Shown here: positions 1-32,522 of the stretch, one piece after another
Position numbering within the stretch: the stretch's first letter is position 1
How the letters are laid out: every line of letters begins with the position of its first letter
Origin: Escherichia coli
GTDB lineage: Bacteria; Pseudomonadota; Gammaproteobacteria; Enterobacterales; Enterobacteriaceae
Direction: 5' to 3' (one strand)
Assembly: GCF_003334305.1 (NCBI RefSeq)
Contig: NZ_QOWS01000033.1
Length of the DNA stretch: 35,452 nucleotides
The notes under the pieces: model-generated
Databases searched by the model: none
What the model saw: only the letters and a program-made list of their open reading frames with translations
Told to the model about the DNA's origin: nothing
Made by a program: the position numbers and the translations under genes

Positions 1-2
1 TT

Positions 3-497
3 GGTTTAGGAGAAGGCTCTGCATTACCGGTTGGGGTGCCTGTTCCGTGGCCTTCAGCCACTCCGCCAACAGGCTGGCTGAAATGCAATGGTGCGGCTTT
101 TTCTGCTGAAGAATACCCGGAACTGGCAAAGGCTTACCCGACCAATAAATTGCCTGATTTACGTGGTGAGTTTATTCGTGGCTGGGATGATGAACGTGGT
201 GTGGATAGTGGGCGAACTCTGCTTTCATCGCAAGGAGATGCTATTCGAAACATTACTGGCGGTTTTGGTCAGTTGCGCGTAAACAGCGAAATTAATGCAA
301 TTGTCGATGTTCAAAGTGTGAGTGGGGCTTTTTACGGAGGTACCTCAGTCCGGAATAACATCAATGTGTCTATGACATACGCTAATGACCGAAAAATCCG
401 ACAAGATGTTCACTTCTCGGCGGCAAATGTTGTTCCAACAGCAAATGAAAATCGTCCACGTAACATCGCCTTTAATTATATTGTGAGGGCCGCATGA
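3..497 (+). CDS. Tail fibre protein, C-terminal variable part (5'-truncated by window edge; constant part lies upstream)
   Basis: Frame is open from position 3; the translation (GLGEGSALPVGVPVPW...GWLKCNGAAFSAEEYPEL...) resembles phage tail-fibre tips; the stop overlaps the start of the next gene (ATGA at 494-497). Confidence 0.65.
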   Translation, partial: GLGEGSALPVGVPVPWPSATPPTGWLKCNGAAFSAEEYPELAKAYPTNKLPDLRGEFIRGWDDERGVDSGRTLLSSQGDAIRNITGGFGQLRVNSEINAIVDVQSVSGAFYGGTSVRNNINVSMTYANDRKIRQDVHFSAANVVPTANENRPRNIAFNYIVRAA

Positions 498-1102
498 TGA
501 ATAAAGCTGTATTAAATAGCAAACTCATTGCCATAAAAGCGGGAGACATTATCATTTATAATTATGATGGTGAAACGCGGGAATATATTTCTACATCAAC
601 TGAATATCTCGCTGTCGGCGTCGGTATCCCGGCATGTTCTTGTTTAGATGCTCCGGGCTCAAACAAAGCTGGTTATGCAATTTGTCGTTCTGTAGATTTA
701 AACTCATGGGAATATGTGCCAGACCATCGCGGTGAAGTTGTCTATAGTACCGAAACGGGAGATACCAAAGAAATCACAGCTCCGGGTGATTACCCTGAAA
801 ATACAACCATTATCGCCCCATTAACGCCATACGATAAATGGGATGGTGAGAAATGGGTGACCGATACTGAGGCACAGCATAGCGCCGCAGTAGACGCGGC
901 AGAAGCACAGCGTCAGTCACTGATTGATGCTGCAATGGCTTCCATCAGTCTGATTCAGCTGAAATTACAGGCCGGACGGAAGTTGATGCAGGCAGAAACA
1001 ACCCGGCTTAACGCCGTGCTGGATTACATTGACGCGGTGACGGCAACAGATACCAGCACCGCGCCTGATATTATTTGGCCTGTATTCCCTGAGACTGATT
1101 AA
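494..1102 (+). CDS. Tail fibre assembly chaperone (Tfa / P2 G-like)
   Basis: 202-aa ORF immediately after the tail-fibre gene with start/stop overlap; position and size fit a tail fibre assembly protein. Confidence 0.65.
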   Translation: MMNKAVLNSKLIAIKAGDIIIYNYDGETREYISTSTEYLAVGVGIPACSCLDAPGSNKAGYAICRSVDLNSWEYVPDHRGEVVYSTETGDTKEITAPGDYPENTTIIAPLTPYDKWDGEKWVTDTEAQHSAAVDAAEAQRQSLIDAAMASISLIQLKLQAGRKLMQAETTRLNAVLDYIDAVTATDTSTAPDIIWPVFPETD

Positions 1103-1292
1103 CCTCAATTAGTATTGGTTCGCCTTTCTCATTAATTGTTAGCTCCATGCCCTGAGGAATTTCTGTCATAGTAAAAAACCAGTTGTCCTCCGGTAATTCA
1201 ATAGCCCCGGTCACGTCATGAAGACCGGGGATTACTTCAGTCAAAGTAACTGGATTAAACAGGCGCACAATAAACCCTCCAGGAAAAAGCAT
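1071..1292 (-). CDS. Alternative (inverted-orientation) short tail fibre assembly protein
   Basis: Minus-strand ORF convergent with the plus-strand assembly gene, downstream of the minus-strand fibre cassette; start placed at an internal Met; arrangement mirrors Mu G-segment / e14 cassettes. Confidence 0.35.
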   Translation of the reverse strand: MLFPGGFIVRLFNPVTLTEVIPGLHDVTGAIELPEDNWFFTMTEIPQGMELTINEKGEPILIEVNQSQGIQAK

Positions 1293-1596
1293 TTGATGAT
1301 GGTCTGCCGTCGTACATCTGGCAGCGGGCATAAAAGCCGGTATTTGTTACCTGATCATCCACGATCATTGAAACATGAACATTATTAGGTGTGCTCTCGT
1401 AATCCGTTCTTATTCTTTCCGCGATACTGATAAAACGTGAAAGTTTAGGCAGTGCAATTGGGTAAACAACTTTAGCCAGTCCATTATCATTAGATCCACC
1501 GGTTCCAAATACTTCTATTGCACCGTCTGACCAGCGTATCCATGCACCATTGGCATTAGCTCCTCGCTGAATGACATATCTGGCTTCTCCCAAACC
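1255..1596 (-). CDS. Alternative tail-fibre C-terminal cassette, promoterless, expressed only after inversion
   Basis: Minus-strand frame encodes ...VGLGEARYVIQRGANANGAWIRW...; the VGLGE junction matches the GLGE junction at the window start; the Met codons at 1638 lie outside the inverted repeat and are probably incidental. Confidence 0.5.
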   Translation of the reverse strand, partial: GLGEARYVIQRGANANGAWIRWSDGAIEVFGTGGSNDNGLAKVVYPIALPKLSRFISIAERIRTDYESTPNNVHVSMIVDDQVTNTGFYARCQMYDGRPSSNAFSWRVYCAPV

Positions 1597-1610
1597 AACG
1601 TTTAAGAAAA
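1585..1610. repeat. Invertase crossover site (hix/gix-like), right end of invertible segment; partner half-site at 1-14
   Basis: 1585-1598 TTCTCCCAAACCAA is the reverse complement of window positions 1-14 (TTGGTTTAGGAGAA) with one mismatch; 1585-1610 has the form TTCTCCCAAACC-AA-CGTTTAAGAAAA, resembling the 12-2-12 Hin/Gin crossover sites. Confidence 0.55.
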
Positions 1611-1659
1611 TGCAGAGGTAACAGCTAACTGGCATCATCTCCGGTTTTTATTCAGGGGG

Positions 1660-2232
1660 ATGATCATGCTTATTGGCTATGTACGCGTGTCAACAAATGA
1701 CCAGAACACCGATTTGCAACGTAATGCACTGAACTGCGCGGGATGTGAGCAGATTTTTGAGGACAAAATCAGTGGCACTAAGTCCGACAGACCGGGGCTG
1801 AAAAAACTACTCAGGACACTATCGGCAGGAGACACGCTGGTTGTCTGGAAGCTGGACAGGTTGGGGCGCAGTATGCGGCATCTTGTTACGCTGATAGAAG
1901 AGTTGCGCCAGCGTGGTGTGAATTTCAGAAGCCTGACTGACAGTATTGATACCAGTACCCCAATGGGTCGTTTCTTTTTTCATGTCATGGGTGCCCTGGC
2001 TGAAATGGAACGCGAACTGATAGTTGAACGTACCAGGGCAGGGCTGGCTGCAGCTCGTGCCAAAGGCAGAGTAGGTGGACGCCGTCCTAAGTTGACCACC
2101 GAACAGTGGGCACAGATTGGGCGTTTACTCGAGGCCGGAGAATCAAGACAGCGTATTGCACTGATTTTTGATGTAGGCGTTTCTACCATTTATAGAAAAT
2201 TTCCGGCAAATAAGATCAATGAATCCCCCTGA
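1660..2232 (+). CDS. Serine DNA invertase (Pin/Gin/Hin/Cin family)
   Basis: N-terminus IGYVRVSTNDQ with the catalytic Ser context, a resolvase-type catalytic domain and a C-terminal HTH (GVSTIYRKF); lies directly beside the right crossover site. Confidence 0.85.
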   Translation: MIMLIGYVRVSTNDQNTDLQRNALNCAGCEQIFEDKISGTKSDRPGLKKLLRTLSAGDTLVVWKLDRLGRSMRHLVTLIEELRQRGVNFRSLTDSIDTSTPMGRFFFHVMGALAEMERELIVERTRAGLAAARAKGRVGGRRPKLTTEQWAQIGRLLEAGESRQRIALIFDVGVSTIYRKFPANKINESP

Positions 2233-2374
2233 ATCAGCATTATGTTGATTATCCCTGCAAGCAGACAAATACCGTTATTTTGTGTGAATAACGACACAAC
2301 TGCGCTTAGCTGTTTGTCAGGCACAATCACTTCAACATAGGGCGAAGCCTAATCCAATCAGGAGGTTCGCCACT

Positions 2375-3547
2375 ATGGCTCAGGATTACCACCACGGGGT
2401 GCGCGTTGTTGAAGTCAACGAAGGCACCCGATCTATTACCACGGTGAGCACCGCCATCGTGGGTATGGTCTGCACGGGCGATGATGCCGATGCAAAAATG
2501 TTTCCTCTTAATAAACCCGTGCTGATCACTGATGTGCTGACTGCCAGCGGTAAAGCGGGTGAGTCAGGTACTCTGGCCCGTTCGCTGGATGCCATCGCTG
2601 ACCAGGCAAAACCCGTGACCATTGTTGTGCGTGTGCCGCAGGGTGAAACGGAAGACGAAACCACGACCAATATCATCGGCGCAGTGACTGCTGAAGGTAA
2701 AAAAACAGGTATGAAAGCCCTGTTATCTGCCCAGTCACAGCTCGGCGTTAAACCGCGCATTCTCGGCGTGCCAGGCCACGACACCAAGGCGGTAGCTACT
2801 GAGTTGCTGAGCGTGGCGCAAAGCCTGCGTGGATTTGCTTACCTGTCAGCGTATGGCTGCAAGACAGTGCAGGAGGCGATCACTTACCGCGAAAACTTCA
2901 GCCAGCGCGAAGGGATGCTGATCTGGCCTGACTTTACTGGCTGGGACACGGTGCTGAATGCCGAAGCAACGGCATATGCCACCGCCCGTGCGCTTGGTCT
3001 GCGCGCCAAAATTGACGAGCAGACCGGATGGCACAAAAGCCTGTCCAACGTGGGCGTGAACGGTGTCACCGGAATTTCTGCAGATGTGTTCTGGGATCTG
3101 CAGGACCCGGCAACCGATGCAGGTCTGCTGAACCAGAACGACGTCACCACGCTTGTGCGTAAAGACGGTTTCCGCTTCTGGGGTTCCCGCTGCCTGAGTG
3201 ATGACCCGCTCTTTGCCTTCGAAAACTACACCCGCACGGCGCAGGTGCTGATGGACACGATGGCAGAAGCACACATGTGGGCGGTGGATAAACCGCTTAA
3301 CCCGTCGCTGGCCCGCGACATTATCGAAGGTATCCGCGCCAAAATGCGCAGCCTGGTCAGTCAGGGCTATCTCATTGGTGGTGATTGCTGGCTGGATGAG
3401 TCGGTGAACGACAAAGACACGCTGAAAGCCGGAAAACTCACCATCGACTACGACTACACGCCAGTGCCGCCACTTGAAAACCTGATGCTGCGTCAGCGCA
3501 TCACCGATCAGTACCTGGTGAATTTCGCCAGCCAGGTCAGCGCGTAA
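2375..3547 (+). CDS. Contractile tail sheath protein (P2 FI-like)
   Basis: 390-aa ORF first in the conserved FI-FII-E-T-U-D order; size and position fit the sheath. Confidence 0.8.
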
Positions 3548-3556
3548 GGGGACAAC

Positions 3557-4072
3557 ATGGCATTACCACGCAAATTAAAACACCTGAACCTGTTTAACGA
3601 CGGGAACAACTGGCAGGGGATCGTTGAGTCGCTGACGCTGCCGAAATTTACCCGCAAATATGAGAAGTATCGCGGCGGCGGAATGCCGGGTGCGGTGGAT
3701 GTGGATCTGGGGCTTGATGACAGTGCGCTGGACACAGAATTTTCCATTGGTGGTACTGAATTGCTGCTGTTTAAACAGATGGGTAAAGCCACGGTGGATG
3801 GCATCCAGCTGCGCTTTACCGGCTCTATTCAGCGTGACGATACCGGGGAAGTGCAGGCCGTGGAGCTTGTCGTGCGTGGACGTCACAAAGAAGTGGATTC
3901 CGGCGAGTGGAAGACGGGCGAAAGCAACACCACCAAAGTGACCAGTACCAACAGCTACGCGAAGCTGACCATCAATGGTGAGGTGCTCTATGAAGTGGAC
4001 CTTATCAACATGGTGGAAATTGTGGACGGTGTGGACCTGATGGAAGCGCACCGCAACGCCCTCGGCCTCTGA
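3557..4072 (+). CDS. Tail tube protein (P2 FII-like)
   Basis: 171-aa ORF directly after the sheath gene. Confidence 0.8.
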   Translation: MALPRKLKHLNLFNDGNNWQGIVESLTLPKFTRKYEKYRGGGMPGAVDVDLGLDDSALDTEFSIGGTELLLFKQMGKATVDGIQLRFTGSIQRDDTGEVQAVELVVRGRHKEVDSGEWKTGESNTTKVTSTNSYAKLTINGEVLYEVDLINMVEIVDGVDLMEAHRNALGL

Positions 4073-4126
4073 TATATCTGAACGGCGCGGGATACCGCGC
4101 CAGAACCCAATTGACAGGACAGCAAA

Positions 4127-4429
4127 ATGAGCGATAAGCAGACTGAAAAGACCATTCAACTGGATACCCCCATCAAGCGCGGTAAAACAGAAATCACCGA
4201 AATTGTGCTGCGTAAACCGCAGTCCGGTGCGCTACGCGGTACACGCCTGCAGGCCATTATGGATATGGATGTAAACGCGATGATGACCGTGATCCCCCGC
4301 ATCTCCAGTCCGGCACTGACTGCACAGGAAATTGCAGAGATGGACCCGGCAGATCTCACTGCCATGTCGGTTGAGGTTGTCACTTTTTTGTTGAAGAAGT
4401 CGGTGCTTGCCGGTTTACCGACAGCCTGA
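4127..4429 (+). CDS. Tail assembly chaperone E
   Basis: 100-aa ORF between tube and tape measure; contains the slippery run TTTTTTG near its 3' end. Confidence 0.75.
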   Translation: MSDKQTEKTIQLDTPIKRGKTEITEIVLRKPQSGALRGTRLQAIMDMDVNAMMTVIPRISSPALTAQEIAEMDPADLTAMSVEVVTFLLKKSVLAGLPTA

Positions 4430-4563
4430 CGGTTGACGATCTGGTGGCAGATATCGCCACCATTTTTCACTGGCCGCCATCCGTTACTGACGTTATGCCG
4501 CTGACCGAAGTGCTGGAATGGCGGTATAAAGCGATTCAGAGAAGCGGGGCCAACGATGAGTGA
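4127..4563 (+). CDS. Tail assembly chaperone E+E' made by a programmed -1 frameshift at TTTTTTG (4384-4390)
   Basis: The -1 frame after the slippery site stays open to a TGA at 4561-4563, encoding ...ADIATIFHWPPSVTDVMPLTEVLEWRYKAIQRSGANDE and overlapping the tape-measure ATG at 4556. Confidence 0.6.
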
Positions 4564-7500
4564 TAACAACCTGCGTCTGCAGGTCATTCTTAATGCGGTT
4601 GACAAGCTCACCCGCCCATTTCGATCTGCGCAGGCCAGTTCAAGAGAACTGGCTGCTGCTGTCAAAAAATCCCGCGATGCAATAAAGCAGCTTGATCAGG
4701 CCGGGAGCAGTCTGGACAGCTTCCGAAAGCTGCAGGCAGAAAATCAGAAATTAGGCGACAGGCTGAACTATGCCCGCCAGCGTGCAAATTTGCTCAGTCA
4801 GGAACTGGGAGCGATGGGGCCGCCTTCGCAACGTCAGGTTGTTGCTCTGGGCCGTCAACGGCTGGCTGTTCAGCGCCTGGAAGAACGCCAGAAAAAGCTG
4901 CAGCAGCAGACGGCGCTTGTGCGTGCTGAACTGTACCGGGCGGGAATTTCTGCGAAAGACGATGCGGGAGCAACTGCCCGTTTAGCCCGTGAAACATCAC
5001 GTTATAACCAGGAACTTTCGAAACAGGAGGCGCGGCTGAAGCGACTGGGGGAAGCTCAGCGCAGGATGAATGCAGCGCGTGCCAGTTATGCCCGTTCGCT
5101 GGAGGTGCGTGATCGTATTGCAGGTGCCGGAGCCACCACCACGGCTGCAGGGCTGGCAATGGGTGCGCCAGTGATGGCGGCAGTAAAAAGCTATACCAGC
5201 ATGGAAGATGCCATGAAAGGTGTGGCAAAGCAGGTCAATGGTCTGCGTGACGATAATGGCAACCGCACTGCACGTTTTTATGAAATGCAGGATGCCATCA
5301 AGGCTGCCAGCGAACAGTTGCCGATGGAAAACGGTGCGGTGGACTTCGCTGCACTGGTTGAAGGTGGTGCGCGCATGAACGTCGCAAACCCTGACGACAG
5401 CTGGGAAGATCAGAAACGTGACCTGCTGGCCTTCGCCAGTACGGCAGCAAAGGCGGCAACAGCCTTTGAGCTGCCAGCGGATGAACTGTCAGAAAGTCTG
5501 GGGAAAATCGCCCAGCTCTACAAAATCCCCACCCGCAATATTGAACAGCTCGGTGATGCGCTGAACTATCTGGATGATAACGCCATGTCGAAAGGGGCAG
5601 ACATCATTGATGTGATGCAACGTCTGGGCGGTGTGGCTGACCGTCTGGATTATCGTAAAGCGGCGGCGCTGGGTTCCACCTTCCTGACACTGGGCGCTGC
5701 GCCGGAGGTTGCAGCCAGTGCAGCAAACGCGATGGTGCGTGAATTGTCCATTGCCACCATGCAAAGCAAGAGTTTCTTTGAAGGGATGAATCTGCTGAAA
5801 CTCAATCCTGAAGTGATTGAAAAGCAGATGACGAAGGATGCGATGGGAACCATCCAGCGCGTGCTGGAGAAGGTAAACGCGCTGCCGCAGGACAAGCGCC
5901 TGTCTGCCATGACTATGTTGTTTGGTAAAGAGTTTGGCGATGACGCGGCGAAACTGGCAAACAACCTGCCGGAACTGCAGCGTCAGTTAAAACTGACAGC
6001 GGGCAATGATGCGCTTGGCTCCATGCAGAAAGAATCCGACATTAACAAGGATTCACTTTCTGCGCAGTGGTTGCTGGTCAAAACCGGAGCGCAGAACACC
6101 TTCAGCAGCCTGGGCGAAACGCTGCGCCAGCCGCTGATGGATATTCTGTACACGGTGAAAAGCGTCACGGGGGCGTTGCGTCGCTGGGTGGAAGCTAACC
6201 CGGAACTGACAGGCACACTGATGAAAGCATCGGCTGTTGTGGCTGCGGTTACCGTCGGCCTCGGCACCTTAGCGGTGGCGCTGGCTGCAGTGCTGGGGCC
6301 GCTGGCAGTGATCCGTCTGGGATTCTCTGTGTTGGGTATCAAAACGTTATCTTCCGTTACGGCAGCAGTAACTCGAACCAGCAGCGCGTTGTCCTGGCTG
6401 GCTGGCGCACCACTGGCACTGCTGCGACGCGGGCTTGCTTCATCGGGCAACGCCGCAGGTTTACTTACTGCGCCGTTGTCGTCTTTGCGCCGCACGGCAT
6501 CACTGACGGGAAATGTCCTGAAAACTGTAGCAGGTGCGCCGGTTGCACTTTTGCGGTCTGGATTATCCGGTTTACGTGCGGTTGCTGTGATGTTTATGAA
6601 TCCACTGGCAGCACTACGCGGCGGGCTGGCTGCCGCAGGCACGGTGCTGCGAGTACTGGCATCTGGTCCACTGGCGATGTTGCGCGTTGCCCTGTATGCC
6701 GTATCTGGTCTGTTAGGTGCTCTGCTCAGTCCGATAGGTCTTGTGGTTACTGCACTGGCGGGTGTGGCACTGGTTGTCTGGAAATACTGGCAACCCATCA
6801 CCGCATTTCTCGGTGGCGTGGTGGAAGGATTCAAAGCGGCGGCAGGTCCCATCAGTGCAGCGTTCGAACCGCTTAAGCCTGTGTTCCAGTGGATTGGTGA
6901 CAAAGTGCAGGCGCTGTGGGGCTGGTTTACTGATCTGCTGACGCCCGTTAAGTCGACTTCTGCCGAACTGCAGAGCGCAGCGGCAATGGGGCGACGATTC
7001 GGGGAGGCACTGGCGGAAGGGCTGAATATGGTCATGCATCCGCTGGACTCCCTGAAATCCGGCGTTTCCTGGTTGCTGGAGAAGCTCGGCATTATCAGTA
7101 AAGAGGCCGCAAAGGCAAAACTGCCGGAAAGCGTGACGCGTCAGCAACCTGCGACGGTGAATGCAGACGGTAAAGTGATGATGCCATCGGGTGGTTTTCC
7201 GTCATGGGGATATGGCTTTGCGGGGATGTATGACAGCGGCGGCTATATCCCGCGCGGGCAGTTTGGCATCGTCGGTGAAAACGGGCCGGAAATTGTTAAC
7301 GGCCCGGCAAATGTGACCAGCCGGAGAAATACAGCTGCACTGGCTGCCGTTGTTGCCGGAATGATGGGCGTTGCTGCCGCGCCTGCAGAGCTTCCACCGT
7401 TGCACCCTTTGGCACTTCCCGCGAAAGGCGGCGAAGCGATGGTGAGTCGTGCAGCCACTGTGCCGCCCGTTCAACGGATTGAGGCACCGATGCAGATCAT

Positions 7501-7633
7501 CATTCAGACGCAGCCAGGACAAAGTGCGCAGGATATTGCGCGGGAGGTGGCCCGCCAGCTTGATGAACGTGAACGCAGGCTGAAGGCAAAAGCCAGGAGT
7601 AACTACAGCGATCAGGGGGGATACGACGCATGA
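4556..7633 (+). CDS. Tail tape measure protein (P2 T-like)
   Basis: 1025-aa ORF with a coiled-coil-like N-terminal region, central hydrophobic Ala/Leu/Gly repeats and the canonical position after E/E'. Confidence 0.85.
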   Translation: MSDNNLRLQVILNAVDKLTRPFRSAQASSRELAAAVKKSRDAIKQLDQAGSSLDSFRKLQAENQKLGDRLNYARQRANLLSQELGAMGPPSQRQVVALGRQRLAVQRLEERQKKLQQQTALVRAELYRAGISAKDDAGATARLARETSRYNQELSKQEARLKRLGEAQRRMNAARASYARSLEVRDRIAGAGATTTAAGLAMGAPVMAAVKSYTSMEDAMKGVAKQVNGLRDDNGNRTARFYEMQDAIKAASEQLPMENGAVDFAALVEGGARMNVANPDDSWEDQKRDLLAFASTAAKAATAFELPADELSESLGKIAQLYKIPTRNIEQLGDALNYLDDNAMSKGADIIDVMQRLGGVADRLDYRKAAALGSTFLTLGAAPEVAASAANAMVRELSIATMQSKSFFEGMNLLKLNPEVIEKQMTKDAMGTIQRVLEKVNALPQDKRLSAMTMLFGKEFGDDAAKLANNLPELQRQLKLTAGNDALGSMQKESDINKDSLSAQWLLVKTGAQNTFSSLGETLRQPLMDILYTVKSVTGALRRWVEANPELTGTLMKASAVVAAVTVGLGTLAVALAAVLGPLAVIRLGFSVLGIKTLSSVTAAVTRTSSALSWLAGAPLALLRRGLASSGNAAGLLTAPLSSLRRTASLTGNVLKTVAGAPVALLRSGLSGLRAVAVMFMNPLAALRGGLAAAGTVLRVLASGPLAMLRVALYAVSGLLGALLSPIGLVVTALAGVALVVWKYWQPITAFLGGVVEGFKAAAGPISAAFEPLKPVFQWIGDKVQALWGWFTDLLTPVKSTSAELQSAAAMGRRFGEALAEGLNMVMHPLDSLKSGVSWLLEKLGIISKEAAKAKLPESVTRQQPATVNADGKVMMPSGGFPSWGYGFAGMYDSGGYIPRGQFGIVGENGPEIVNGPANVTSRRNTAALAAVVAGMMGVAAAPAELPPLHPLALPAKGGEAMVSRAATVPPVQRIEAPMQIIIQTQPGQSAQDIAREVARQLDERERRLKAKARSNYSDQGGYDA

Positions 7634-8115
7634 TGATGGTGCTGGGATTGTACGTGTTTATGCTGCGCACCGTGCCGTATCAGGAGCTGCAGTATCAACG
7701 CAGCTGGCGACATGCGGCAAACAGCCGGGTAAACCGACGTCCGTCCACGCAGTTTCTGGGACCGGACAACGACATGCTGACGCTTTCCGGTGTTCTTATG
7801 CCGGAGATAACAGGTGGCAGGCTGTCGTTGCTGGCACTGGAGCAGATGGCAGAACAGGGGAAAGCATGGCCCCTGATTGAAGGCAGCGGCACGATTTATG
7901 GCATGTATGTGATTGAGGGACTGAATCAGACTAAAACGGAGTTTTTCCGCGACGGTATGCCGCGCCGGATTGAGTTCACCCTGTCGCTCAAACGGGTGGA
8001 TGAATCCCTGTCCGATATGTTCGGTGATCTCAGTGCGCAACTGAATAATCTGCAGGAAACGGCAACGTCTGCCTTAAGCGATATCAGTAAAACGGTGGGA
8101 GGGCTGCTGTCGTGA
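7630..8115 (+). CDS. Tail protein U-like
   Basis: 161-aa ORF whose start overlaps the tape-measure stop; position matches P2 gene U. Confidence 0.75.
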   Translation: MMMVLGLYVFMLRTVPYQELQYQRSWRHAANSRVNRRPSTQFLGPDNDMLTLSGVLMPEITGGRLSLLALEQMAEQGKAWPLIEGSGTIYGMYVIEGLNQTKTEFFRDGMPRRIEFTLSLKRVDESLSDMFGDLSAQLNNLQETATSALSDISKTVGGLLS

Positions 8116-9212
8116 ATTTCAGCTCTGAACTGCTTAACAAAAGCAACAAAACTCCGGCATTCAGCATCAGTATTGAGGGCAGGGATATCACTACTGTGCT
8201 GGATAACCGCCTGATGAGTCTGACTCTGACGGACAATCGGGGCTTTGAAGCAGACCAGCTTGATCTGGAGCTGGACGATGCCGACGGGAAAATCGTGCTG
8301 CCGCGCCGTGGTGCGGTCATTACGCTGGCGCTGGGCTGGAAGGGGCAGCCGCTTTTCCCGAAAGGGGCATTCACGGTGGACGAGATTGAACACACTGGCG
8401 CACCGGACCGCCTGACTATCCGGGCGCGAAGTGCTGATTTTCGGGAAACGCTGAATACCCGCCGTGAAAAATCGTGGCACAAGACCACCATTGGGGAAGT
8501 GGTGAAGGAGATAGCCGCGCGGCACAAGCTGAAGATGGTACTGGGTAAAGACCTGTCGGATAAGCTCGTGGAGCATATAGACCAGACTAATGAGAGTGAC
8601 GGTAGTTTTCTGATGCGGCTGGCGCGCCAGTACGGTGCTATTGCGTCGGTGAAAAATGGCAATCTGTTATTCATCCGGCAGGGACAGGGCAAAAGTGCCA
8701 GCGGTAAACCACTGCCGGTGATCACTATCACACGTAAGGACGGCGACAGTCACCGCTTTACCCTGGCAGATCGCGGAGCCTATACGGGCATAATTGCCAG
8801 CTGGTTGCATACCCGCGAACCCGCGAAGAAAGAAAGCACCACGGTGAAGCGTAAGCGCAGGACTAAGAAGCAGAAGAAAGAGCCGGAAGCGAAGCAGGGC
8901 GATTACCTGGTGGGTACGGATGAAAACGTGCTGGTACTTAATCGCACTTATGCCAACCGGAGCAACGCTGAACGGGCAGCGAAAATGCAGTGGGAACGCC
9001 TGCAACGCGGCGTTGCGTCATTCTCGCTACAACTGGCGGAAGGGCGGGCAGATCTCTACACGGAAATGCCAGTGAAAGTCAGTGGCTTTAAACAGCCGAT
9101 AGATGATGCGGAATGGACCATTACGACTCTGACACATACCGTCAGCCCGGATAATGGTTTTACGACCAGTCTTGAGCTTGAAGTGAAGGTTGATGATCTC
9201 GAAATGGAATGA
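8112..9212 (+). CDS. Tail protein D-like (late tail gene)
   Basis: 366-aa ORF with a GTG start overlapping the U stop; position matches P2 gene D. Confidence 0.75.
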   Translation: MNFSSELLNKSNKTPAFSISIEGRDITTVLDNRLMSLTLTDNRGFEADQLDLELDDADGKIVLPRRGAVITLALGWKGQPLFPKGAFTVDEIEHTGAPDRLTIRARSADFRETLNTRREKSWHKTTIGEVVKEIAARHKLKMVLGKDLSDKLVEHIDQTNESDGSFLMRLARQYGAIASVKNGNLLFIRQGQGKSASGKPLPVITITRKDGDSHRFTLADRGAYTGIIASWLHTREPAKKESTTVKRKRRTKKQKKEPEAKQGDYLVGTDENVLVLNRTYANRSNAERAAKMQWERLQRGVASFSLQLAEGRADLYTEMPVKVSGFKQPIDDAEWTITTLTHTVSPDNGFTTSLELEVKVDDLEME

Positions 9213-9302
9213 TTCTTCACAATGGAGAACTTTTAAGTTTGAAAAATGGAATAATGCGATATCATTATTGTGAATTTAGCAAAAATGGGGAGAACTCGAA
9301 AA

Positions 9303-9521
9303 ATGATGATTTGCCCACTGTGTGGAAGTGCCGCCCATACTCGCAGCAGTTTTCAGGTATCTTCATTGACCAAAGAGCGTTACAACCAGTGCCAGAACAT
9401 TAACTGCAGCCATACTTTTGTTACCCATGAAACTTTTGTTCGTTCGATTGCAACGCCAAAAGAGTCAAATCCGGTTCAGCCGCATCCTCATAAATTTAAA
9501 CAGGTGGGTTTGCCGATTTAA
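9303..9521 (+). CDS. ogr: Ogr/Delta-type zinc-finger late transcription activator
   Basis: CPLCGSAAHTRSS...YNQCQNINCSHTF is a C4 zinc-finger pattern like P2 Ogr; start placed at the Met preceding CPLC, with a GGGAGA Shine-Dalgarno upstream. Confidence 0.75.
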   Translation: MMICPLCGSAAHTRSSFQVSSLTKERYNQCQNINCSHTFVTHETFVRSIATPKESNPVQPHPHKFKQVGLPI

Positions 9522-9585
9522 ATGGCGACATAACTACATGATTTAAAACTATACTTTTCTATAAGTTGAGGTTAAATTAACAATG

Positions 9586-9762
9586 CCTGACGTTAGCGGG
9601 GATTTATCCCCACTCCGTAGATATGTAGTTTGTCGCTTTGCGACTGCGGACCGATTACCTGATTGCCATGTAATCGGACGCCGACTTGTTAAGCTTTCTG
9701 GGCTAACTGGTTGTTATTTTTTATTTAGTTAGGGCCATGCGCTTGCGCTAAGAGACGTCAGG
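9586..9762 (+). ncRNA. Candidate structured non-coding RNA upstream of the reverse transcriptase (retron msr/msd-like or DRT-type ncRNA)
   Basis: Long-range inverted repeat CCTGACGTTAGCG (9586-9598) with CGCTA-AGAG-ACGTCAGG (9746-9762) enclosing hairpins at 9598-9611, 9632-9644 and 9651-9677; no convincing ORF inside. Confidence 0.4.
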
Positions 9763-9782
9763 TATCTATGGAGGAACAAGTT

Positions 9783-9956
9783 ATGGATACAAACGAACTT
9801 GGCTTAGTTAAGGCGCGTGTTGAACTGATCACCGCTATGCTCAAATGCGCAACCGCGTTTGTTGGCTTAGTTGGTGCGGTTTACGCCGTTCTTAACATGG
9901 CCTTCAACTACAACAATTTAACTCATGACAATAGAAGTTCAAAGGTGGGAAGATAA
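9783..9956 (+). CDS. Small hypothetical protein with one hydrophobic helix (possible small effector, or frameshifted RT N-terminus)
   Basis: Only open frame across 9768-9956; GGAGGA Shine-Dalgarno about 7 nt before the ATG at 9783; hydrophobic stretch AFVGLVGAVYAVLNMAF; overlaps the RT start by about 30 nt in another frame. Confidence 0.3.
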   Translation: MDTNELGLVKARVELITAMLKCATAFVGLVGAVYAVLNMAFNYNNLTHDNRSSKVGR

Positions 9957-10698
9957 ATTTGAGATTAAGCCCGGGGTTTGGGTTTATGTCCCAAGCGTTG
10001 AGGCACGTAAAGTCGGAGGGAAGATACTTCAGGCTGTCAGAAACAAGTGGATTCCGCCACTCTATTTTTACCATCTAAGAACTGGTGGGCATCTTAAAGC
10101 TGCCAGATTACACTTAAAAAGTGATTTTTTTGCCGTTGTTGATATTAAACAATTTTTTCAGTCAACGAGCCGTAGTCGTATCACCCGTGATCTAAAGAGC
10201 TACTTCACCTATTCTCAAGCGCGGGAAATCTCAACATTTTCAACTGTAAGAAACTTGTCCCATAGTCCACATAAGCATGTCCTCCCTTTTGGTTTTGTTC
10301 AATCTCCAATACTTGCAACCCTCTGCTTAGATAAAAGTTATTTTGGTAGCTTACTACGCCGATTGAACAAACATCATGATCTCAAGCTAAGTGTGTTTAT
10401 GGATGATGTGATCATCTCGTCAAACGATTTGGCCCAATTACAAGCGGCTTACGACGAAGCACTAGTGGCAATGCGTAAATCTGGTTATCAAGCCAACATG
10501 AGTAAAACTCAGGCACCATCGTCAAAGATTAGCGTGTTTAATTTAACTTTGAGTAAGGGAGTTATGAAAGTCACATCTCAGAAAATGAGTGACTTCCTGA
10601 TTGATTTCTATTCAAGCAATTATGAGCCGCACAGAATAGGGGTCAAAAACTACGTCGAAGCTGTTAATCCAGGGCAAGCGAAACTCTTTAAGTTGTAA
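9925..10698 (+). CDS. Compact reverse transcriptase (retron/Abi/DRT-like RT domain)
   Basis: RT motifs readable in the translation: fingers FEIKPGVWVYVPS, motif A VVDIKQFFQS, motif B LPFGFVQSPILATLCL, catalytic YxDD box FMDD; AT-rich with rare codons (AGA, ATA, CTA). Confidence 0.75.
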   Translation: MTIEVQRWEDKFEIKPGVWVYVPSVEARKVGGKILQAVRNKWIPPLYFYHLRTGGHLKAARLHLKSDFFAVVDIKQFFQSTSRSRITRDLKSYFTYSQAREISTFSTVRNLSHSPHKHVLPFGFVQSPILATLCLDKSYFGSLLRRLNKHHDLKLSVFMDDVIISSNDLAQLQAAYDEALVAMRKSGYQANMSKTQAPSSKISVFNLTLSKGVMKVTSQKMSDFLIDFYSSNYEPHRIGVKNYVEAVNPGQAKLFKL

Positions 10699-10806
10699 TT
10701 GCGATCGCATGTAGTAGCAACTGGGCTTGACTGAATGTCTGCCGCCATTTTGCCGCCACTACTAAAGAAAAAAGGGCTACGCTTTCACGTAACCCCTTGA
10801 TTTATT

Positions 10807-11169
10807 TGGTGGAGCTGGCGGGAGTTGAACCCGCGTCCGAAATTCCTACATCCTCGGTACTACATGCTTAGTCAGTCTTTACATTCGCTTGCCAGCTGCG
10901 GACGGACACGCCACTAACAAACTAGCCTGATTAAGTTTTAACGCTTCAACCCCAGGCAGGGCTTCCACGCGATCTCTTTTGGGTTTGACCTCTCTTGATC
11001 CCCGTCCTAAGAGCGGAGGCTAGGGAGAGAGGGCTCTAAGCAGGTTATTAAGCTGCTAAAGCGTAGTTTTCGTCGTTTGCGACTATTTTTTGCGGCTTTT
11101 TACGAGGCCAACCGCCCCTCGGCATGCACCTTGGGTTTCGCAAATCCCGTCGAATCCAGAATCAGCCCC
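10807..11169 (-). ncRNA. ssrA: tmRNA (SsrA)
   Basis: Reverse complement matches E. coli tmRNA from GGGGCTGATTCTGG (5' end at 11169) to GCTCCACCA (3' end at 10807), including the tag-coding region. Confidence 0.95.
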
Positions 11170-11383
11170 AATGTGTAAAGGTAAGTATACCAGATTTATG
11201 AGCGCCATGACCAGCCTCAATGGCGTTATCGTTAAAGATTTAGCACCCATGTAGCCTGATTTTTATTCGATTAAGCAATGGGATGGCAACATTTGTGTCG
11301 GATGTGATAGCCAATAAGATGTTCATTCGCGCCGCCGGAGAGGGAGGCGCGGTGAGGAACTGGTCAATAATTGGAGTGCAGGT

Positions 11384-11866
11384 TTAACGGTGGGCGTTTT
11401 TCATGATACGTGCTTTATCCACCTGCCATTCGCGTTCTTTGATATCTGAACGTTTATCGTGCTGTTTTTTACCTTTGGCGACGCCGATTTTCACTTTGCA
11501 CCAGGCATTTTTCCAGTACAGGGAGAGCGCCACTACGGTATAGCCTTCTCGATTGACGCGACCGTACAATGAGTCCAGTTCGCGTTGGTTGAGAAGTAAC
11601 TTGCGGGTACGGGTAGGATCGCACACCACATGCGTGGAGGCCACGGCCATTGGCGTGATGTTAGCGCCAAACAGAAATGCCTCTCCGTCACGCAGAAGGA
11701 CGTAGCTGTCGCTGATATTGGCTTTTCCTGCGCGCAGGGATTTAACCTCCCAGCCTTGCAGGGCAAGTCCCGCTTCGAACTCTTCTTCGATAAAGTATTC
11801 GTGACGGGCGCGCTTGTTAAGCGCGATGGTCGCTGAACCAGGTTTATGTGCTTTTTTCTTCGTCAT
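11384..11866 (-). CDS. smpB: SsrA-binding protein SmpB
   Basis: 160-aa translation is the recognisable SmpB sequence; lies directly upstream of ssrA on the same strand. Confidence 0.95.
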
Positions 11867-11997
11867 AAGCGTCGTGAATCATCGGTAATCTGAAATCGAA
11901 AACACCCCATATCAATCCTGCGGGGGACAAGGCTCTATCTTAGCATGAACCCGATGTTACCCAGCGCCGGGATAGCGTTTTTTTTACAGCAGGATAA

Positions 11998-12474
11998 ATG
12001 ATATTATTTGTTGGATTTTTGTTGATGGAAATTGTTATGCCTCAGATTAGCCGGACCGCACTGGTACCCTACAGCGCGGAGCAAATGTATCAGTTAGTGA
12101 ATGACGTTCAGTCTTATCCTCAGTTTTTGCCGGGTTGTACCGGAAGTCGGATTCTGGAGTCCACTCCTGGGCAGATGACTGCGGCGGTAGATGTCTCTAA
12201 GGCTGGGATCAGCAAAACGTTTACTACCCGCAACCAGTTGACCAGTAACCAAAGTATTCTTATGAATCTGGTGGATGGGCCGTTCAAGAAATTGATTGGT
12301 GGATGGAAGTTTACGCCGCTGAGCCAGGAGGCGTGTCGTATCGAGTTTCATCTCGACTTTGAGTTTACCAATAAGTTGATTGAACTCGCCTTTGGTCGCG
12401 TGTTTAAAGAGCTGGCGTCTAATATGGTCCAGGCTTTTACGGTTCGTGCGAAAGAGGTTTACAGTGCCAGGTAA
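11998..12474 (+). CDS. ratA: Ribosome association toxin RatA (YfjG, SRPBCC family)
   Basis: Conserved divergent neighbour of smpB; translation consistent with YfjG; true start may be an internal Met. Confidence 0.8.
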
Positions 12475-12754
12475 AATTGCCGTTGAGGTGGCTTATGCGC
12501 TACCTGAGAAGCAGTACCTGCAGCGCGTGACGCTGCAGGAGGGCGCGATGGTTGAAGAAGCTATTCGCGCCAGTGGCTTGCTGGAATTGCGTACCGATAT
12601 CGATTTAACTAAAAACAAAGTCGGCATTTACAGCCGTCCGGCAAAACTAAGCGATAGTGTGCATGATGGCGATCGGGTGGAGATTTATCGCCCTCTCATT
12701 GCCGATCCGAAAGAGCTTCGCAGGCAACGAGCAGAAAAATCAGCGAATAAATAA
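12464..12754 (+). CDS. ratB: RatB / YfjF (UPF0125 family)
   Basis: GTG start overlapping the ratA stop; 96 aa; conserved operon partner. Confidence 0.75.
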
Positions 12755-12761
12755 CAGACAG

Positions 12762-12790
12762 AAAAAAGGTGCTCATTGAGCACCTTTTTT
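12762..12790. terminator. Bidirectional rho-independent terminator between ratB and bamE
   Basis: AAAAAAGGTGCTCATTGAGCACCTTTTTT: GC stem flanked by an A-run and a T-run. Confidence 0.6.
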
Positions 12791-12815
12791 AACGTCTTTG
12801 AGAGCAACTTTATTA

Positions 12816-13157
12816 TTAGTTACCACTCAGCGCAGGTTTGTTATCAATATTGGTCAACACACCGCTACTGTTAAAGGTCAGCGTCAGCGTTTGCTGCGTT
12901 ACACCTTCATGACCTGGTTGCTGGCGGAAGACATAGAACCAGGTATTCGTACCAAATGGATCGGACATCAGCGGTGTACCCAATGCGTACGCAACTTGTT
13001 GTTGCGTCATGCCAACACGTATTTTGGATACGTCGTTAGCGGTCAGATAGTTCCCCTGGTTGATGTCAGGACGGTAAACCACTCGCTCCAGAGTGGAACA
13101 GCCTGCGGTCAACATCAATAGTACTGCTGCTGCAGCAGTCAGCGTTTTACAGCGCAT
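12816..13157 (-). CDS. bamE: Outer membrane protein assembly factor BamE (SmpA)
   Basis: 113-aa lipoprotein with signal peptide and lipobox (LTAGC); conserved position. Confidence 0.9.
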
Positions 13158-13305
13158 AGTGATTTGATTCCTTTTCGGGCCCGAGCAGTACGTGGCTCAT
13201 CTGTAATATGCCGATGATAATAGACCTTTCATCACTTTAAAACCTTTTGCTTTCCGGTCTTACGGCGTTTTGCTGTTTACTCTGACCGTGAAGCAGGAAA
13301 AAAGT

Positions 13306-14967
13306 TTACGCTGCAAGCAGTTCTTTCGCATTCGCCAGTGTATTACGTGTGACTTCACTGCCACCAAGCAGGCGCGCCAGCTCTTGTAACCGCGCTTTTT
13401 TATTCAGGGATTGCATATGCGTTTCTGTCATCGCACCATCGGTTTCTTTGCTGACAAAATAGTGTTGATGACCACATCCCGCGACTTGTGGCAGGTGGGT
13501 AACACACATCACCTGAGTTGATTCGCCGAGTTGACGCAGCAGTTTGCCGACAACTGCCGCTGTTGGACCGCTAATACCTACATCCACTTCATCAAAAATC
13601 AGTGCCGGGGTTTCCATTTTACGCGCCGTGATGACCTGGATTGCCAGTGCGATGCGGGACAATTCACCACCGGATGCGACTTTGGCAATAGGCTGCATTG
13701 GCTGACCTGGGTTGGTGGTTACCCGAAACTCAATACGATCGGCACCGTCAGCGCCCAGGTGATGCTCGTCAAATTTAACATCGATCGTAAACTGCCCATG
13801 CGGCATTGAGAGCGCATGCATACTGTCGGTGATCAGCTGTGCAAGTTCTTCTGCATATTGCTGGCGTTGTTGGTGTAATGCGCGCGCGATTTCCAGTGCC
13901 TGCTGATGATGTTTCGTTACCGCCAGCGCAAGCGTTTCTTGTGAGTCGGCCTGATCGTCCAGTTGCTGCTGTTCTTCCAGTAGCGACTGGTAATACTGTG
14001 GCAATGCCTCAGGGCTGACGTGATGTTTACGTGCCAGCGAAATCTGTTTTGAGATGCGCTGTTCAAGTTCAAATAGTCGGTTGGGATCGAGATCCAGACG
14101 ATCGCAGTAGTGGCGCAGTTCATCGCTGGCTTCAGCAATCTGGATGGTAGCTTCTTCCAGCATATCAAGTACGCCGGACAGTTTGCTGTCCATGCCAATC
14201 AATTCGCTCACCAGTTGTTTAGCCGTGTAAAGCTGACTTTGCAGGTTTGCGTCTTCACCGTCGGCCATTAATGCCAATGCATTCTGGCTGGTGGTCAGCA
14301 ATTGACCGCTGTTCGCCAGACGTTTGTACTCTTCGTCGATTTGTTCAAACTCTCCGGGCTGCGGATTAAATTCGTTAAGTTCTTTTAATTGGTATTGCAG
14401 CAGTTCCGCACGGGCGGCGCGTTCCTGACTTAACTGTTGATGATGCGCGAGGTCACGGCAGCTTTGATGCCACAACTGATAACGTGCGGTCATTTCCTGC
14501 AGTAGAGAGGTTTCATTGGCATAGCCATCAAGCAGGAATTTTTGGTGCTCAGGTTTGGTGAGTAATTGATGAGCGTGCTGACCATGGATCTGAATCAGCA
14601 ACTGACCCAGTTCGCGCAGTTGTGACAGAGGAACAGCTGTACCGTTGATGAAACCACGGGAGCGACCATCGCTGCTGATCACTCGACGAAGCAAACATTC
14701 ATGCCCGTCTTCAAGCTGATTTTCTTCCAGCCAGCGCAGAGCCGCTGGCGTATCTTTCAGAGAAAAACGGGCGCACAGGTCAGCGCGAGCAGCGCCGGTA
14801 CGCACCATGTCGGCTTCAGCGCGACCACCGAGACAAAGACCGAGGGCATCTATTGCAATAGATTTACCCGCGCCGGTCTCGCCAGTTATTACGGTCATGC
14901 CGCTATGAAAATCAATCTCAAGCTCACGAACGATAGCAAAGTTGCTGATGGTCAGTTGTGCCAACAT
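13306..14967 (-). CDS. recN: DNA repair protein RecN
   Basis: 553-aa SMC-like protein with an N-terminal Walker A (GETGAGKS) and LexA boxes upstream. Confidence 0.95.
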
Positions 14968-29039: not shown

Positions 29040-29075
29040 ATAAAAAAGGCCCCCCGATTTGGGAGGCCTTATTGT
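29040..29075 (-). terminator. pheA attenuator terminator hairpin
   Basis: On the minus strand GGCCTCCC-AAATC-GGGGGGCC followed by a T-run, between pheL and pheA. Confidence 0.6.
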
Positions 29076-29116
29076 TCGTCTTCGCATTCTGTTTCACACG
29101 ACGAAACGCCTCCCAT

Positions 29117-32460: not shown

Positions 32461-32522
32461 CCTAAAGAATCAAGACGATCCGGTACGCGTGATTTTCTTT
32501 TCACATTAATCTGGTCAATAAC

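Follow-up and report, generated by a model that had tools for sequence, protein, structure and literature searches.

In the window, which is the whole 35,452-nucleotide stretch of Escherichia coli DNA analysed (contig NZ_QOWS01000033.1), the late genes of a P2-type prophage precede ssrA. We annotated them with PHROG profiles and the RefSeq record of strain A7, the only genome matching positions 1–14000 at 100%:

1–497, plus strand: tail fibre gene H, 3' part, cut by the window start (phrog_523/3100, E 4e-68; 'phage tail protein' in A7)
497–1102, plus strand: tfa / P2 G, tail fibre assembly (phrog_105, E 3e-96; tfaE in A7)
1071–1635, minus strand: inverted alternative tfa and fibre-tip ORFs, 1071–1268 and 1255–1635 (A7 annotation; phrog_2557, E 4e-20)
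1666–2232, plus strand: Gin/Cin-type serine DNA invertase (phrog_125, E 7.8e-102)
2375–3547, plus strand: FI tail sheath (phrog_23, E 1.6e-146)
3557–4072, plus strand: FII tail tube (phrog_55, E 1.6e-69; major tail tube in A7)
4127–4563, plus strand: tail chaperones E (4127–4429) and E' (4444–4563) (A7 annotation, PHROG)
4556–7633, plus strand: T tape measure (phrog_28, E 4.5e-198)
7630–8115, plus strand: U tail protein (phrog_76, E 1.7e-83)
8112–9212, plus strand: D late control/tail protein (phrog_52, E 1.4e-175)
9303–9521, plus strand: ogr, Cys4 zinc-finger late activator (ogr/Delta-like zinc finger in A7; CxxC...CxxxxC motif)

By both sources, the first P2-type late gene of the window is the C-terminus of H', and the genes follow the late-operon synteny of the P2 family (H-G...FI-FII-E/E'-T-U-D, then ogr). 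The preliminary description had given the order fibre, Tfa, FI, FII, E/E', T, U, D, ogr (1–9521), with which RefSeq annotation and PHROG agree, but it omitted the invertase and the inverted fibre/tfa segments between tfa and FI. The E' frame is −1 relative to E and a slippery heptamer TTTTTTG lies at 4385–4391, as expected of the programmed −1 frameshift of the P2 family. The ORFs at 1071–1635 form an invertible tail-fibre segment, and the window diverged from its relatives at ~297 and ~1583. The invertase, of the Gin/Cin serine type (phrog_125), is not the prophage integrase; its homologue in phage Cartapus is annotated 'Mu Gin invertase homolog'. The window DNA was 95–98% identical to classified Peduoviridae records. 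Positions 1–10806 thus hold the right end, with the late genes, of a P2-family (Peduoviridae) prophage of the Fels-2/186-like kind at ssrA, and the prophage itself is already known biology.

To resolve the junction with the host gene, four att sequences were aligned: those of the window, of K-12, of the distal junction of strain C2 and of Cartapus attP. The junction comprises the following features:

10734–10806, minus strand: phage P' arm of the att junction, common to Cartapus attP and phage 500465-1
10798–10771, minus strand: intrinsic terminator directly after the ssrA 3' end, in the P' arm (terminator scan)
10807–10851, minus strand: att common core O, equal to the 3'-terminal 45 nt of ssrA (four-way alignment)
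10807–11169, minus strand: ssrA (tmRNA), intact, tag ANDENYALAA (ARAGORN; Rfam 295.8 bits)

Since the tmRNA occupies 10807–11169 on the minus strand, its 3' end is at 10807, and the ogr stop codon lies 1285 bp from it, in line with the ~1.3 kb given earlier. The core had been expected in the 108-bp spacer 10699–10806; the alignment places it instead inside ssrA, at 10807–10851. Cartapus attP was 95.8% identical over 10734–10851. A second copy of the 45-nt core was found in C2 (L004 7996–8040), with 0 expected by chance from shuffles, and the alignment established the direct repeat of the tmRNA target and the exchanged arms (BOP' and POB'), both copies being present in C2 and BOP' only in A7. 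The phage integrated when a tyrosine integrase recombined its attP (P-O-P') with these terminal 45 nt of ssrA, and the window junction is B-O-P'. An identical ssrA 3' end (10807–10851) was retained and a phage-borne terminator gained from the P' arm (10734–10806).

ORF and profile searches found no integrase between ogr and ssrA, as had been stated before; the only supported ORFs there encode a 57-aa product and a 257-aa reverse transcriptase (RT). The P2 prophage map has int distal to ogr, and the expectation that int lies at the opposite prophage end holds in C2, which carries an intact copy of the prophage with ogr, small protein (SP) and RT proteins identical to those of the window. The C2 integrase is ~35 kb from the ogr end and adjoins the second copy of the ssrA 3' end, and int, the immunity region (CI/Apl-type), cox/apl, the B/A replication genes and two att junctions are all present. 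Intact copies have int, CI, cox/apl and their replication genes ~35 kb off, at the P-O-B' junction. The suggested upstream search was borne out in part in A7: head, lysis and tail genes continue upstream of the window, while no second core, int or replication/lysogeny (early) genes were found in the 43 kb of the A7 record. The sibling strain A28 likewise has no early region, no int and no partner att. Of the observations named as refuting a P2-type prophage, lack of the partner att was seen and lack of other P2-type genes was not. Neither A7 nor A28 has the full set of int, immunity, cox/apl, B/A and two att sites. The prophage copy is read as a non-excisable late-gene remnant that retains all head, lysis and tail genes plus ogr. 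Homology between A7 and C2 ends at an IS3 within a DUF4145 gene, and an IS3-associated deletion probably removed everything past the portal-proximal hotspot in the window-matching genome; the A7 early region could in principle have been relocated elsewhere in the genome instead. The window matches A7 at 100% and may come from that strain.

The content of the 1.3 kb interval had been left undescribed, and we found that it holds a retron-like RT cassette with these features:

9434–10733, plus strand: variable cargo cassette, ogr to P' arm (blastn breakpoints 9433 and 10734 against Cartapus and 500465-1)
9583–9775, plus strand: retron-like ncRNA (fold z-score, alignment, covariation, covariance model)
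9583–9594, plus strand: a1 repeat
9594–9596, plus strand: invariant UAG, candidate priming G at 9596
9598–9611, plus strand: hairpin after UAG
9613–9624, plus strand: anti-SD segment
9632–9644, plus strand: GUCGC hairpin
9651–9677, plus strand: variable long hairpin (msd-like)
9739–9748, plus strand: GCGC hairpin
9754–9765, plus strand: a2 repeat
9770–9774, plus strand: Shine-Dalgarno (SD) GGAGG
9783–9956, plus strand: SP, 57-aa hydrophobic small protein, putative membrane toxin/effector
9925–10698, plus strand: RT, 257 aa, FMDD catalytic motif, retron-like (Pfam RVT_1, E 2.4e-21)

The cassette therefore consists of a structured RNA, a 57-aa hydrophobic peptide and a 257-aa RT. The point at which Cartapus and 500465-1 cease to be homologous is 9433, so that the final 88 nt of ogr lie inside the swapped cassette, and both phages carry a 160-aa gene in this slot in place of the RT cassette. 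The GC content was 39–45% in the cassette versus 53–60% in the tail genes. A survey of 5426 complete E. coli genomes found the cassette in 28 and the P' arm in 771. The RT-SP module was found in many non-prophage contexts, and no other conserved neighbour (ORF of at least 70 aa within 4 kb) was detected at 49 loci. The cassette is probably an exchangeable two-gene retron-like system with a probable role in anti-phage defence.

The RT is predicted to be of the retron lineage, with modest scores. A PDB profile search returned retron RTs as the top matches (E ~1e-11), and with an AlphaFold2 model (pLDDT 94.4) all of the top 18 Foldseek PDB matches were retron RTs (TM 0.69–0.77), which established the fold. 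The best PADLOC match of the window RT was the retron RT_VI model (63 bits). Across the family, typed retron RT models scored 43–78 bits with no type consistently best; RT_VI led in 4 of the 11 members tested, the others being led by I-B, II-A, IX or a CRISPR-associated RT model. The family comprises ~280 clusters at E ≤ 1e-30, its best matches listed being mostly ~245–265 aa, and its own profile gave its members 213–376 bits among the matches listed. The retron motif pair NAxxH plus VTG was absent: GGH(V/L)xAxxxH is only NAxxH-like, and the 'VTG' position carries an invariant 'VFN'.

An ORF of 41–63 aa just upstream of or overlapping the RT start was kept in nearly every locus, and alpha-, beta- and gammaproteobacteria alike have a conserved small hydrophobic ORF beside the RT. 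In the window, as among the loci listed, the stop codon of SP either overlaps the RT start or lies right against it. The SP family ends in a C-terminal ..NY motif with an invariant Y and a near-invariant N, and the Kyte-Doolittle peak of the window SP was 1.94 (19-residue window).

Upstream of SP, the ncRNA of ~190 nt (fold z-score −4.2) is arranged as in retrons: inverted repeats a1 and a2 close it, a conserved G comes immediately 3' of a1, and the T-A-G is invariant in all 27 aligned sequences. RNAalifold on this alignment revealed compensatory changes at 7 of 8 a1/a2 pairs; 95.8% of cells were paired compared to 29–41% with the partners slid, and covariation was 0.391 versus 0.202, with none of 500 shuffles as high. 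Cognate helices scored above non-cognate ones for both a1/a2 (7.96 vs 5.11) and anti-SD/SD (8.06 vs 5.44), and compensatory changes were present in the anti-SD/SD helix as well. The covariance model found one match per RT locus and no other match in 1.25 Mb. As the a1/a2 and anti-SD/SD helices cross, with a 4-nt overlap in the window, they may be alternative rather than simultaneous. The 7-nt sequence TTAGTTA is directly repeated, with one copy in the msd-like region and the other early in the SP coding sequence; a direct-repeat test across the family was not significant.

Taken together, we consider an ssrA-integrated P2-family late-gene remnant carrying a retron-like cargo cassette, acting as follows, to be the best explanation (probability about 0.8). 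In the resting state, the RNA fold would silence SP translation by pairing the anti-SD with the SP Shine-Dalgarno sequence. On infection by another phage, the msd-like segment would be reverse-transcribed, or its cDNA would accumulate, opening the SD helix; the membrane-active peptide would then be made and the infected cell would stop growing (abortive infection). If true, the lysogen population would be shielded, and the prophage with it. The analysis shows the anatomy, the att structure, the truncation in A7 and A28, the RNA covariation, the RT fold and the conserved synteny; the cDNA synthesis, peptide toxicity, trigger and defence role in this scheme are inferred.

The cassette might be a true Type VI retron, orthologous to Eco12/Vpa2-type systems, that lost or never needed the helix-turn-helix (HTH) gene, and hence an already described system; we regard this as possible, though doubtful. 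Among the PADLOC models RT_VI ranks first or nearly so, and at ~255 aa the family comes near the 279 positions of that model, but 43–78 bits is far under the 213–376 of the family profile, and RT_I-B, II-A and IX sometimes score higher. The order ncRNA, SP, RT with a sequestered RBS fits, and at the sequence level a hydrophobic helical SP on a structured transcript is present as in Type VI. None of the loci inspected had an HTH ORF separating SP from RT, which counts against this assignment, while ~22% of the original Type VI set likewise lacks one. The placement of TTAGTTA agrees with that described for Type VI hyRNAs, against which stands the non-significant test across the family, and the I39/F43/F45 spacing of the Vpa2 SP would fit the [LIF]-x3-F-x-[YF] motif of the family by our reading.

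It is improbable that the cassette, although real, serves prophage maintenance or lysis control, as an addiction-type toxin or an RT-regulated holin-like peptide, rather than defence. A small hydrophobic peptide whose translation is tightly controlled, kept in two strains on a prophage unable to excise, would suit such a role, whereas the many non-prophage contexts without conserved neighbours, the location in an exchangeable slot of low GC, as is typical for defence cargo of phages, and the defence function of the closest characterised systems argue against it. We give as little chance to a possibly complete prophage with its att core in 10699–10806, a distal int and an unremarkable ogr–ssrA interval. 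The late gene order, the lack of int at the ssrA end and the far-end int of the intact relative C2 agree with it, but the core lies within ssrA, the spacer consists of P' arm and terminator, the 100%-matching A7 lacks int, early genes and a partner att, and the interval encodes a conserved RT, a small ORF and an ncRNA. An RT from another retroelement is very improbable, be it a diversity-generating retroelement (DGR) that acts on the nearby tail fibre, a group II intron in decay or an RT of the Abi/DRT type: the host phage has variable tail fibres, PMC9122126, citing Odegrip 2006, places Abi-P2-type RTs in P2-like phages, and DRT9, G2L4, group II and DGR RTs appear lower down in the fold search, but the DGR RT ranks only 28 there behind 18 retron RTs, no TR/VR-type direct repeat occurs in 1–11200, Rfam gave neither an intron nor another match, UG/DRT models reach at most 54 bits and are never best, and the upstream RNA bears the retron-type a1/a2 and UAG.

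In its backbone, the late-gene remnant resembles P2 in the order H-G-(slot)-FI-FII-E/E'-T-U-D-ogr-att and the −1 frameshift for E', and differs in that P2 integrates elsewhere than ssrA, has Z/fun where the window prophage has the invertase switch, and has a C-type immunity region where the C2 prophage has a CI/Apl-type one. The documented defence hotspot of P2 is gpA-gpQ, not ogr-att (Rousset 2022). Fels-2 and SopEPhi are ssrA users (PMC3448106); together with Cartapus (Elveevirus) and 500465-1 (Wadgaonvirus), they are P2-family phages that match the window in late gene order including the invertase, in the P' arm and in the 45-nt ssrA core, with int, CI and cox across attP from the late genes. 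The window copy differs from the Fels-2/Cartapus type by lacking the int/early half and, at the ogr-attP position, by carrying the RT cassette where Cartapus and 500465-1 have an 'exonuclease/ligase-like' gene. The K-12 site is occupied by a different element, as noted previously, namely the cryptic prophage CP4-57, which also targets the ssrA 3' end but is unrelated and has intA directly adjoining ssrA. Past its P2-like prophage, C2 carries a CP4-57-like integrase island in tandem.

Among retrons, Ec86/Eco1 shares the RT fold (TM 0.73 to 7v9x). The Ec86 sequence is ...CCCUUAGCGAG..., its branching G being that of UAG, and the window counterpart of its a1-UAG reads ...GACGUUAGCGGG.... As in canonical retrons, the UAG directly follows the a1/a2 stem repeat, and conserved msr-like hairpins precede a variable msd-like hairpin. 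The window RT is ~60 aa shorter at the N-terminus and has VFN for VTG, and the cassette effector would be a tiny peptide under RNA-level control, whereas theirs is a separate enzyme held inactive by msDNA. A defence role has been demonstrated for the Type VI retrons Vpa2, Eco12 and Sen3, and in Retron-Vpa2 a toxic SP is translationally repressed and relieved by msDNA, as shown experimentally (10.1101/2025.10.22.683967). By their descriptions, these three share with the cassette a compact RT, a structured ncRNA that ends in inverted repeats and a small hydrophobic SP whose RBS is sequestered and which the ncRNA transcript also encodes, SP toxicity being putative here. The cassette differs in that its SP abuts or overlaps the RT with no Cro/C1-type HTH gene, and its a1/a2 stem closes upstream of the SP start, while the distal repeat of Vpa2 and Sen3 lies beyond the SP coding region. 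The cassette thus resembles Type VI retrons, yet has no HTH gene and no strong match to a typed model.

Positions 1-14000 of the window were 100% identical over their full length to a single complete genome, that of E. coli A7 (NZ_CP028767.1), and the sibling strain A28 matched at 100% from position 297 onward. The remainder (14001-35452) was core chromosome, present in all 5426 genomes, and contained the pheA leader (29040-29165) and the RyfD sRNA (32471-32609), both ordinary core-genome features detected with Rfam. The late genes read in the preliminary description agreed with the A7 RefSeq annotation and PHROG profiles, and the interval between ogr and ssrA contained no integrase, as had been stated there.

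Features of the prophage part and its ssrA junction (H' to ogr according to A7 RefSeq annotation and PHROG profiles)
1-497, H' (tail fibre, C-terminal part)
497-1102, tfa
2375-3547, FI
3557-4072, FII
4127-4429, E
4444-4563, E'
4556-7633, T
7630-8115, U
8112-9212, D
9303-9521, ogr
9783-9956, SP, small ORF of 57 aa with a hydrophobic core and a conserved C-terminal ..NY motif
9925-10698, reverse transcriptase (RT) of 257 aa with an FMDD catalytic motif (Pfam RVT_1, E 2.4e-21)
10807-11169, minus strand, intact ssrA (tmRNA; ARAGORN and Rfam, 295.8 bits; tag ANDENYALAA)
11384-11866, smpB, behind ssrA

A P2-type TTTTTTG slippery site (4385-4391) joins E to E'. Two features between tfa and FI had been overlooked, a Gin-type invertase at 1666-2232 and, at 1071-1635, alternative fibre/tfa segments in inverted orientation; the invertase and the inverted fibre-tip/tfa ORFs (1071-2232) fill the Z/fun slot of P2. 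Related genomes part from the window at ~297 and ~1583, a sequence pattern compatible with a host-range segment that can be inverted or exchanged, and the crossover sites of the invertase had weak candidates only, near 277-302 and 1628-1653.

A P2-like prophage at ssrA is known biology and a routine call, ssrA being established as the target of the P2-like phages Fels-2 and SopEPhi (PMC3448106); the att position and the completeness of the element are corrected here. Since ssrA lies on the minus strand, its 3' end is at 10807, toward lower coordinates. We aligned four att sequences, namely the window junction, the K-12 ssrA/CP4-57 junction, the distal junction of C2 (a strain with an intact relative of the prophage) and attP of the P2-family phage Cartapus (Elveevirus). 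The results showed that 45 nt, ATGTAGGAATTTCGGACGCGGGTTCAACTCCCGCCAGCTCCACCA, were exactly common to all four and corresponded to the last 45 nt of ssrA (10807-10851). Upstream of this core (O), the window resembled K-12 (bacterial B arm), and downstream it resembled Cartapus attP (phage P' arm), while the C2 distal junction had the opposite arrangement, P-O-B'. Shared 45 nt with exchanged flanks are what integration predicts, and the att core is thus located within ssrA, outside the 108-bp spacer where it had been expected. The conserved part of that spacer (10734-10806) is the P' arm, which was present in 771 of the 5426 complete E. coli genomes; a terminator scan revealed an intrinsic terminator in it on the ssrA strand (10798-10771), which substitutes for the native ssrA terminator. 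With the core at the ssrA 3' end, prophage boundaries at tRNA/tmRNA genes belong inside the gene.

The same phage is held by C2, with ogr, small-ORF and RT proteins identical to those of the window. The C2 element runs from ssrA through the RT-containing cassette, ogr and the late genes up to the portal gene, continues with a DUF4145 gene, dinI, gpA, dam, fil, cII, cox/apl, CI and int, and is followed by two cargo genes, the 45-nt repeat and a CP4-57-like integrase island. This gene order confirmed, for the intact phage, the earlier proposal that int lies at the far end of the prophage map. Homology between A7 and C2 ended at an IS3 within the DUF4145 gene, beyond which the next 18 kb of A7 consisted of unrelated island genes, and in A28 the same phage was likewise cut at IS3, just past the portal-proximal hotspot. 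When A7 was searched for a partner att with 32- and 18-nt ssrA 3'-end patterns, mismatches allowed, only ssrA itself was matched. The single ssrA end in A7 and the loss of homology at IS3 in both strains indicate, at the level of sequence, that the element of the A7/A28 lineage is a late-gene-only remnant of ~24 kb, which would not be excisable by its own integrase; in principle, the early region of A7 could have been relocated elsewhere in the genome instead of deleted, and the window could derive from a genome other than those sampled. Judging from P2/P4 biology, a late-gene-only remnant could still serve P4-like satellites as a source of capsids, tails and lysis functions.

Outside the window, a degenerate "core remnant plus P' arm" in A7 (record L001, 36825-36914) was rejected as the partner att because its architecture was wrong. 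This segment shows 93.5% identity to the P' arm, has a frameshifted DUF5507 gene and a fragment of an invertase as neighbours in the vicinity of tRNA-Ile, and was probably left behind by an older P2-like prophage. In A28 (record L085, 1-21100, also outside the window), the island past the truncated prophage is tandemly duplicated and contains a 1283-aa ORF, a 248-aa ORF, an HTH gene, a GTPase fragment and IS3 copies.

Whereas the prophage itself is routine, its cargo, a compact RT family with a covarying RNA, is the interesting part. Homology of the window to Cartapus and to 500465-1, a P2-family phage of the genus Wadgaonvirus, was lost at 9433, within the 3'-terminal part of ogr, and restarted at 10734; in both phages, this position is occupied by a 160-aa gene on the opposite strand. 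The swap starts inside ogr, so that its final 88 nt (9434-9521, ~29 codons) go with the cargo and not with the phage backbone. The GC content was 39-45% in the cassette interval compared to 53-60% in the tail genes, and the window version of the cassette was found in only 28 of the 5426 complete E. coli genomes scanned. In 13 prophage records from K. pneumoniae (e.g. OK490395.1), the cassette (9522-10806) showed 99.6% identity, while the remaining shared DNA of these records, in the late region, was ~95.7% identical, which suggests a recent exchange of the cassette between E. coli and K. pneumoniae. S. Typhi STY2879, described as a 257-aa RT with 99% similarity, serves as a LAMP diagnostic target (PMC4409374), and this Salmonella Typhi paper was the sole match of a literature search on the RT accession. 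P2-type T-U-D genes also preceded the module in Klebsiella michiganensis, Halomonas and Salinicola. Cargo is thus exchangeable in the slot between ogr and attP, which is distinct from the catalogued gpA-gpQ hotspot. A second variable slot was observed between attP and int, with two hypothetical genes in C2 (L004, 8154-10529) and a RES-domain gene in Cartapus (L002, 14714-15919).

The RT family comprised ~280 clusters (50% identity) at E <= 1e-30 and extended over alpha-, beta- and gammaproteobacteria, including E. coli and K. pneumoniae prophages and S. Typhi (STY2879); among the matches listed, homologues across Proteobacteria were mostly ~245-265 aa long. In PADLOC, typed retron RT models matched the family best, yet at only 43-78 bits, with RT_VI as the top model for 4 of the 11 members tested and RT_I-B, II-A, IX or CRISPR-associated RT for the others; current typed retron RT models do not capture this family. 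Retron RTs ranked first among solved structures in a family-profile search and accounted for the top 18 Foldseek matches (TM 0.69-0.77) of the AF2 model of the RT (pLDDT 94.4). The position aligned with "VTG" of Ec86, however, is a family-invariant "VFN". A single frameshifted RT of ~314 aa, uniting the 57-aa and 257-aa ORFs, was rejected on the basis of the family RT length (~250-260 aa) and the separate conservation of the small ORF. An RT of the Abi or UG/DRT type was likewise rejected, as typed RT-model scores and the fold search lent it no support, and so was a group II intron remnant, which these two analyses and Rfam failed to support. A DGR was excluded because a TR/VR pair was absent from 1-11200.

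Folding of 9583-9775 was more stable than that of shuffled sequence (z = -4.2). In an alignment of 27 loci, the ncRNA began with a1 and an invariant T-A-G and continued through a first hairpin, a pyrimidine-rich segment, a GUCAC/GUGAC hairpin, a variable hairpin, GUUGGUU and CAUGCGC-loop-GCGCUAGG to a2, which was followed by a Shine-Dalgarno (SD) sequence and AUG. The canonical retron priming arrangement is likewise an a1/a2 stem followed by UAG; Ec86 reads ...CCCUUAGCGAG..., and its branching G lies in this UAG. In the named structure, 95.8% of cells were paired compared to 29-41% with partners slid, and the covariation score (0.391 vs 0.202) was reached by 0 of 500 shuffles. The a1/a2 helix showed compensatory changes in 7 of 8 pairs (RNAalifold) and scored higher for cognate (7.96) than for non-cognate partners (5.11). 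A second helix, in which the pyrimidine-rich segment would pair with the SD region, behaved similarly (cognate: 8.06; non-cognate: 5.44), and its sequence differed by lineage (CUCCGUAGAU/AUCUAUGGAG, CCUCAUC/GAUGAGG, CCUCUAUU/AAUAGAGG, UACCCAUCC/GGAUGGGUA). Since the two helices cross, they would either coexist as a pseudoknot or represent alternative conformers. The covariation support is strong for a predicted retron-type priming stem and a predicted SD-sequestering helix alike. A covariance model of the aligned loci gave one match per RT locus at 37 loci, non-seed members included, and in 1.25 Mb no match outside RT loci and none in phages without the cassette; no Rfam family matched the ncRNA, even at E <= 10.

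An ORF of 41-63 aa lay just upstream of, or overlapped, the RT start in nearly all loci. Across 49 loci, no conserved gene of at least 70 aa was found near the RT besides SP, and no HTH gene was found between SP and RT. No obvious SD sequence precedes the RT start codon (9925), which lies in a 32-nt overlap with the small ORF; RT translation may be coupled to that of the peptide which the RT is proposed to control. The 7-nt sequence TTAGTTA is directly repeated, with one copy close to the 3' end of the msd-like region (9725-9731) and the other at codons 8-9 of the small ORF (9805-9811). Repeats of this kind have been described for Type VI hybrid RNAs (hyRNAs), and their cDNA could base-pair with the downstream copy; family-wide, repeats between the msd-like region and the early SP coding sequence were not distinguishable from non-cognate pairs (5.62 vs 5.29).

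Because the cassette has no HTH gene, control would have to rest on the RNA and the RT. The RT would copy an msd-like segment, starting just 5' of a2; upon infection by another phage, cDNA synthesis or accumulation would open the SD helix, and the peptide, once made, would halt the cell. Our tentative reading, to which we assign a probability of roughly one in three (0.35), is that the cassette represents an untyped, distinct two-gene retron class (ncRNA, ~50-aa peptide and ~255-aa RT, lacking an HTH or any further protein partner), in which the toxin is silenced by the SD-hiding helix alone and reverse transcription is the switch. If true, it would be a minimal "reverse-transcription-gated riboregulator"; should the proposed working hold, it would offer the simplest natural system for testing the gating of toxin translation by cDNA synthesis, as well as a small, portable RT/ncRNA pair.

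In gene order and hidden ribosome-binding site, the cassette resembles Type VI retrons. In the Type VI retron Vpa2, the toxic small protein is encoded on a "hybrid RNA" and translationally repressed, and msDNA accumulation releases it (10.1101/2025.10.22.683967), whereas in Sen3 the toxic small protein is neutralised by an HTH antitoxin. The two Type VI retrons studied rely on an HTH protein and the cassette does not encode one, Vpa2 and Eco12 being compared here from their descriptions. The family may be either a divergent offshoot of Type VI or a type of its own. We infer that the cassette is retron-like and would work in the manner of Type VI, from which it departs in one defining feature, the HTH protein.
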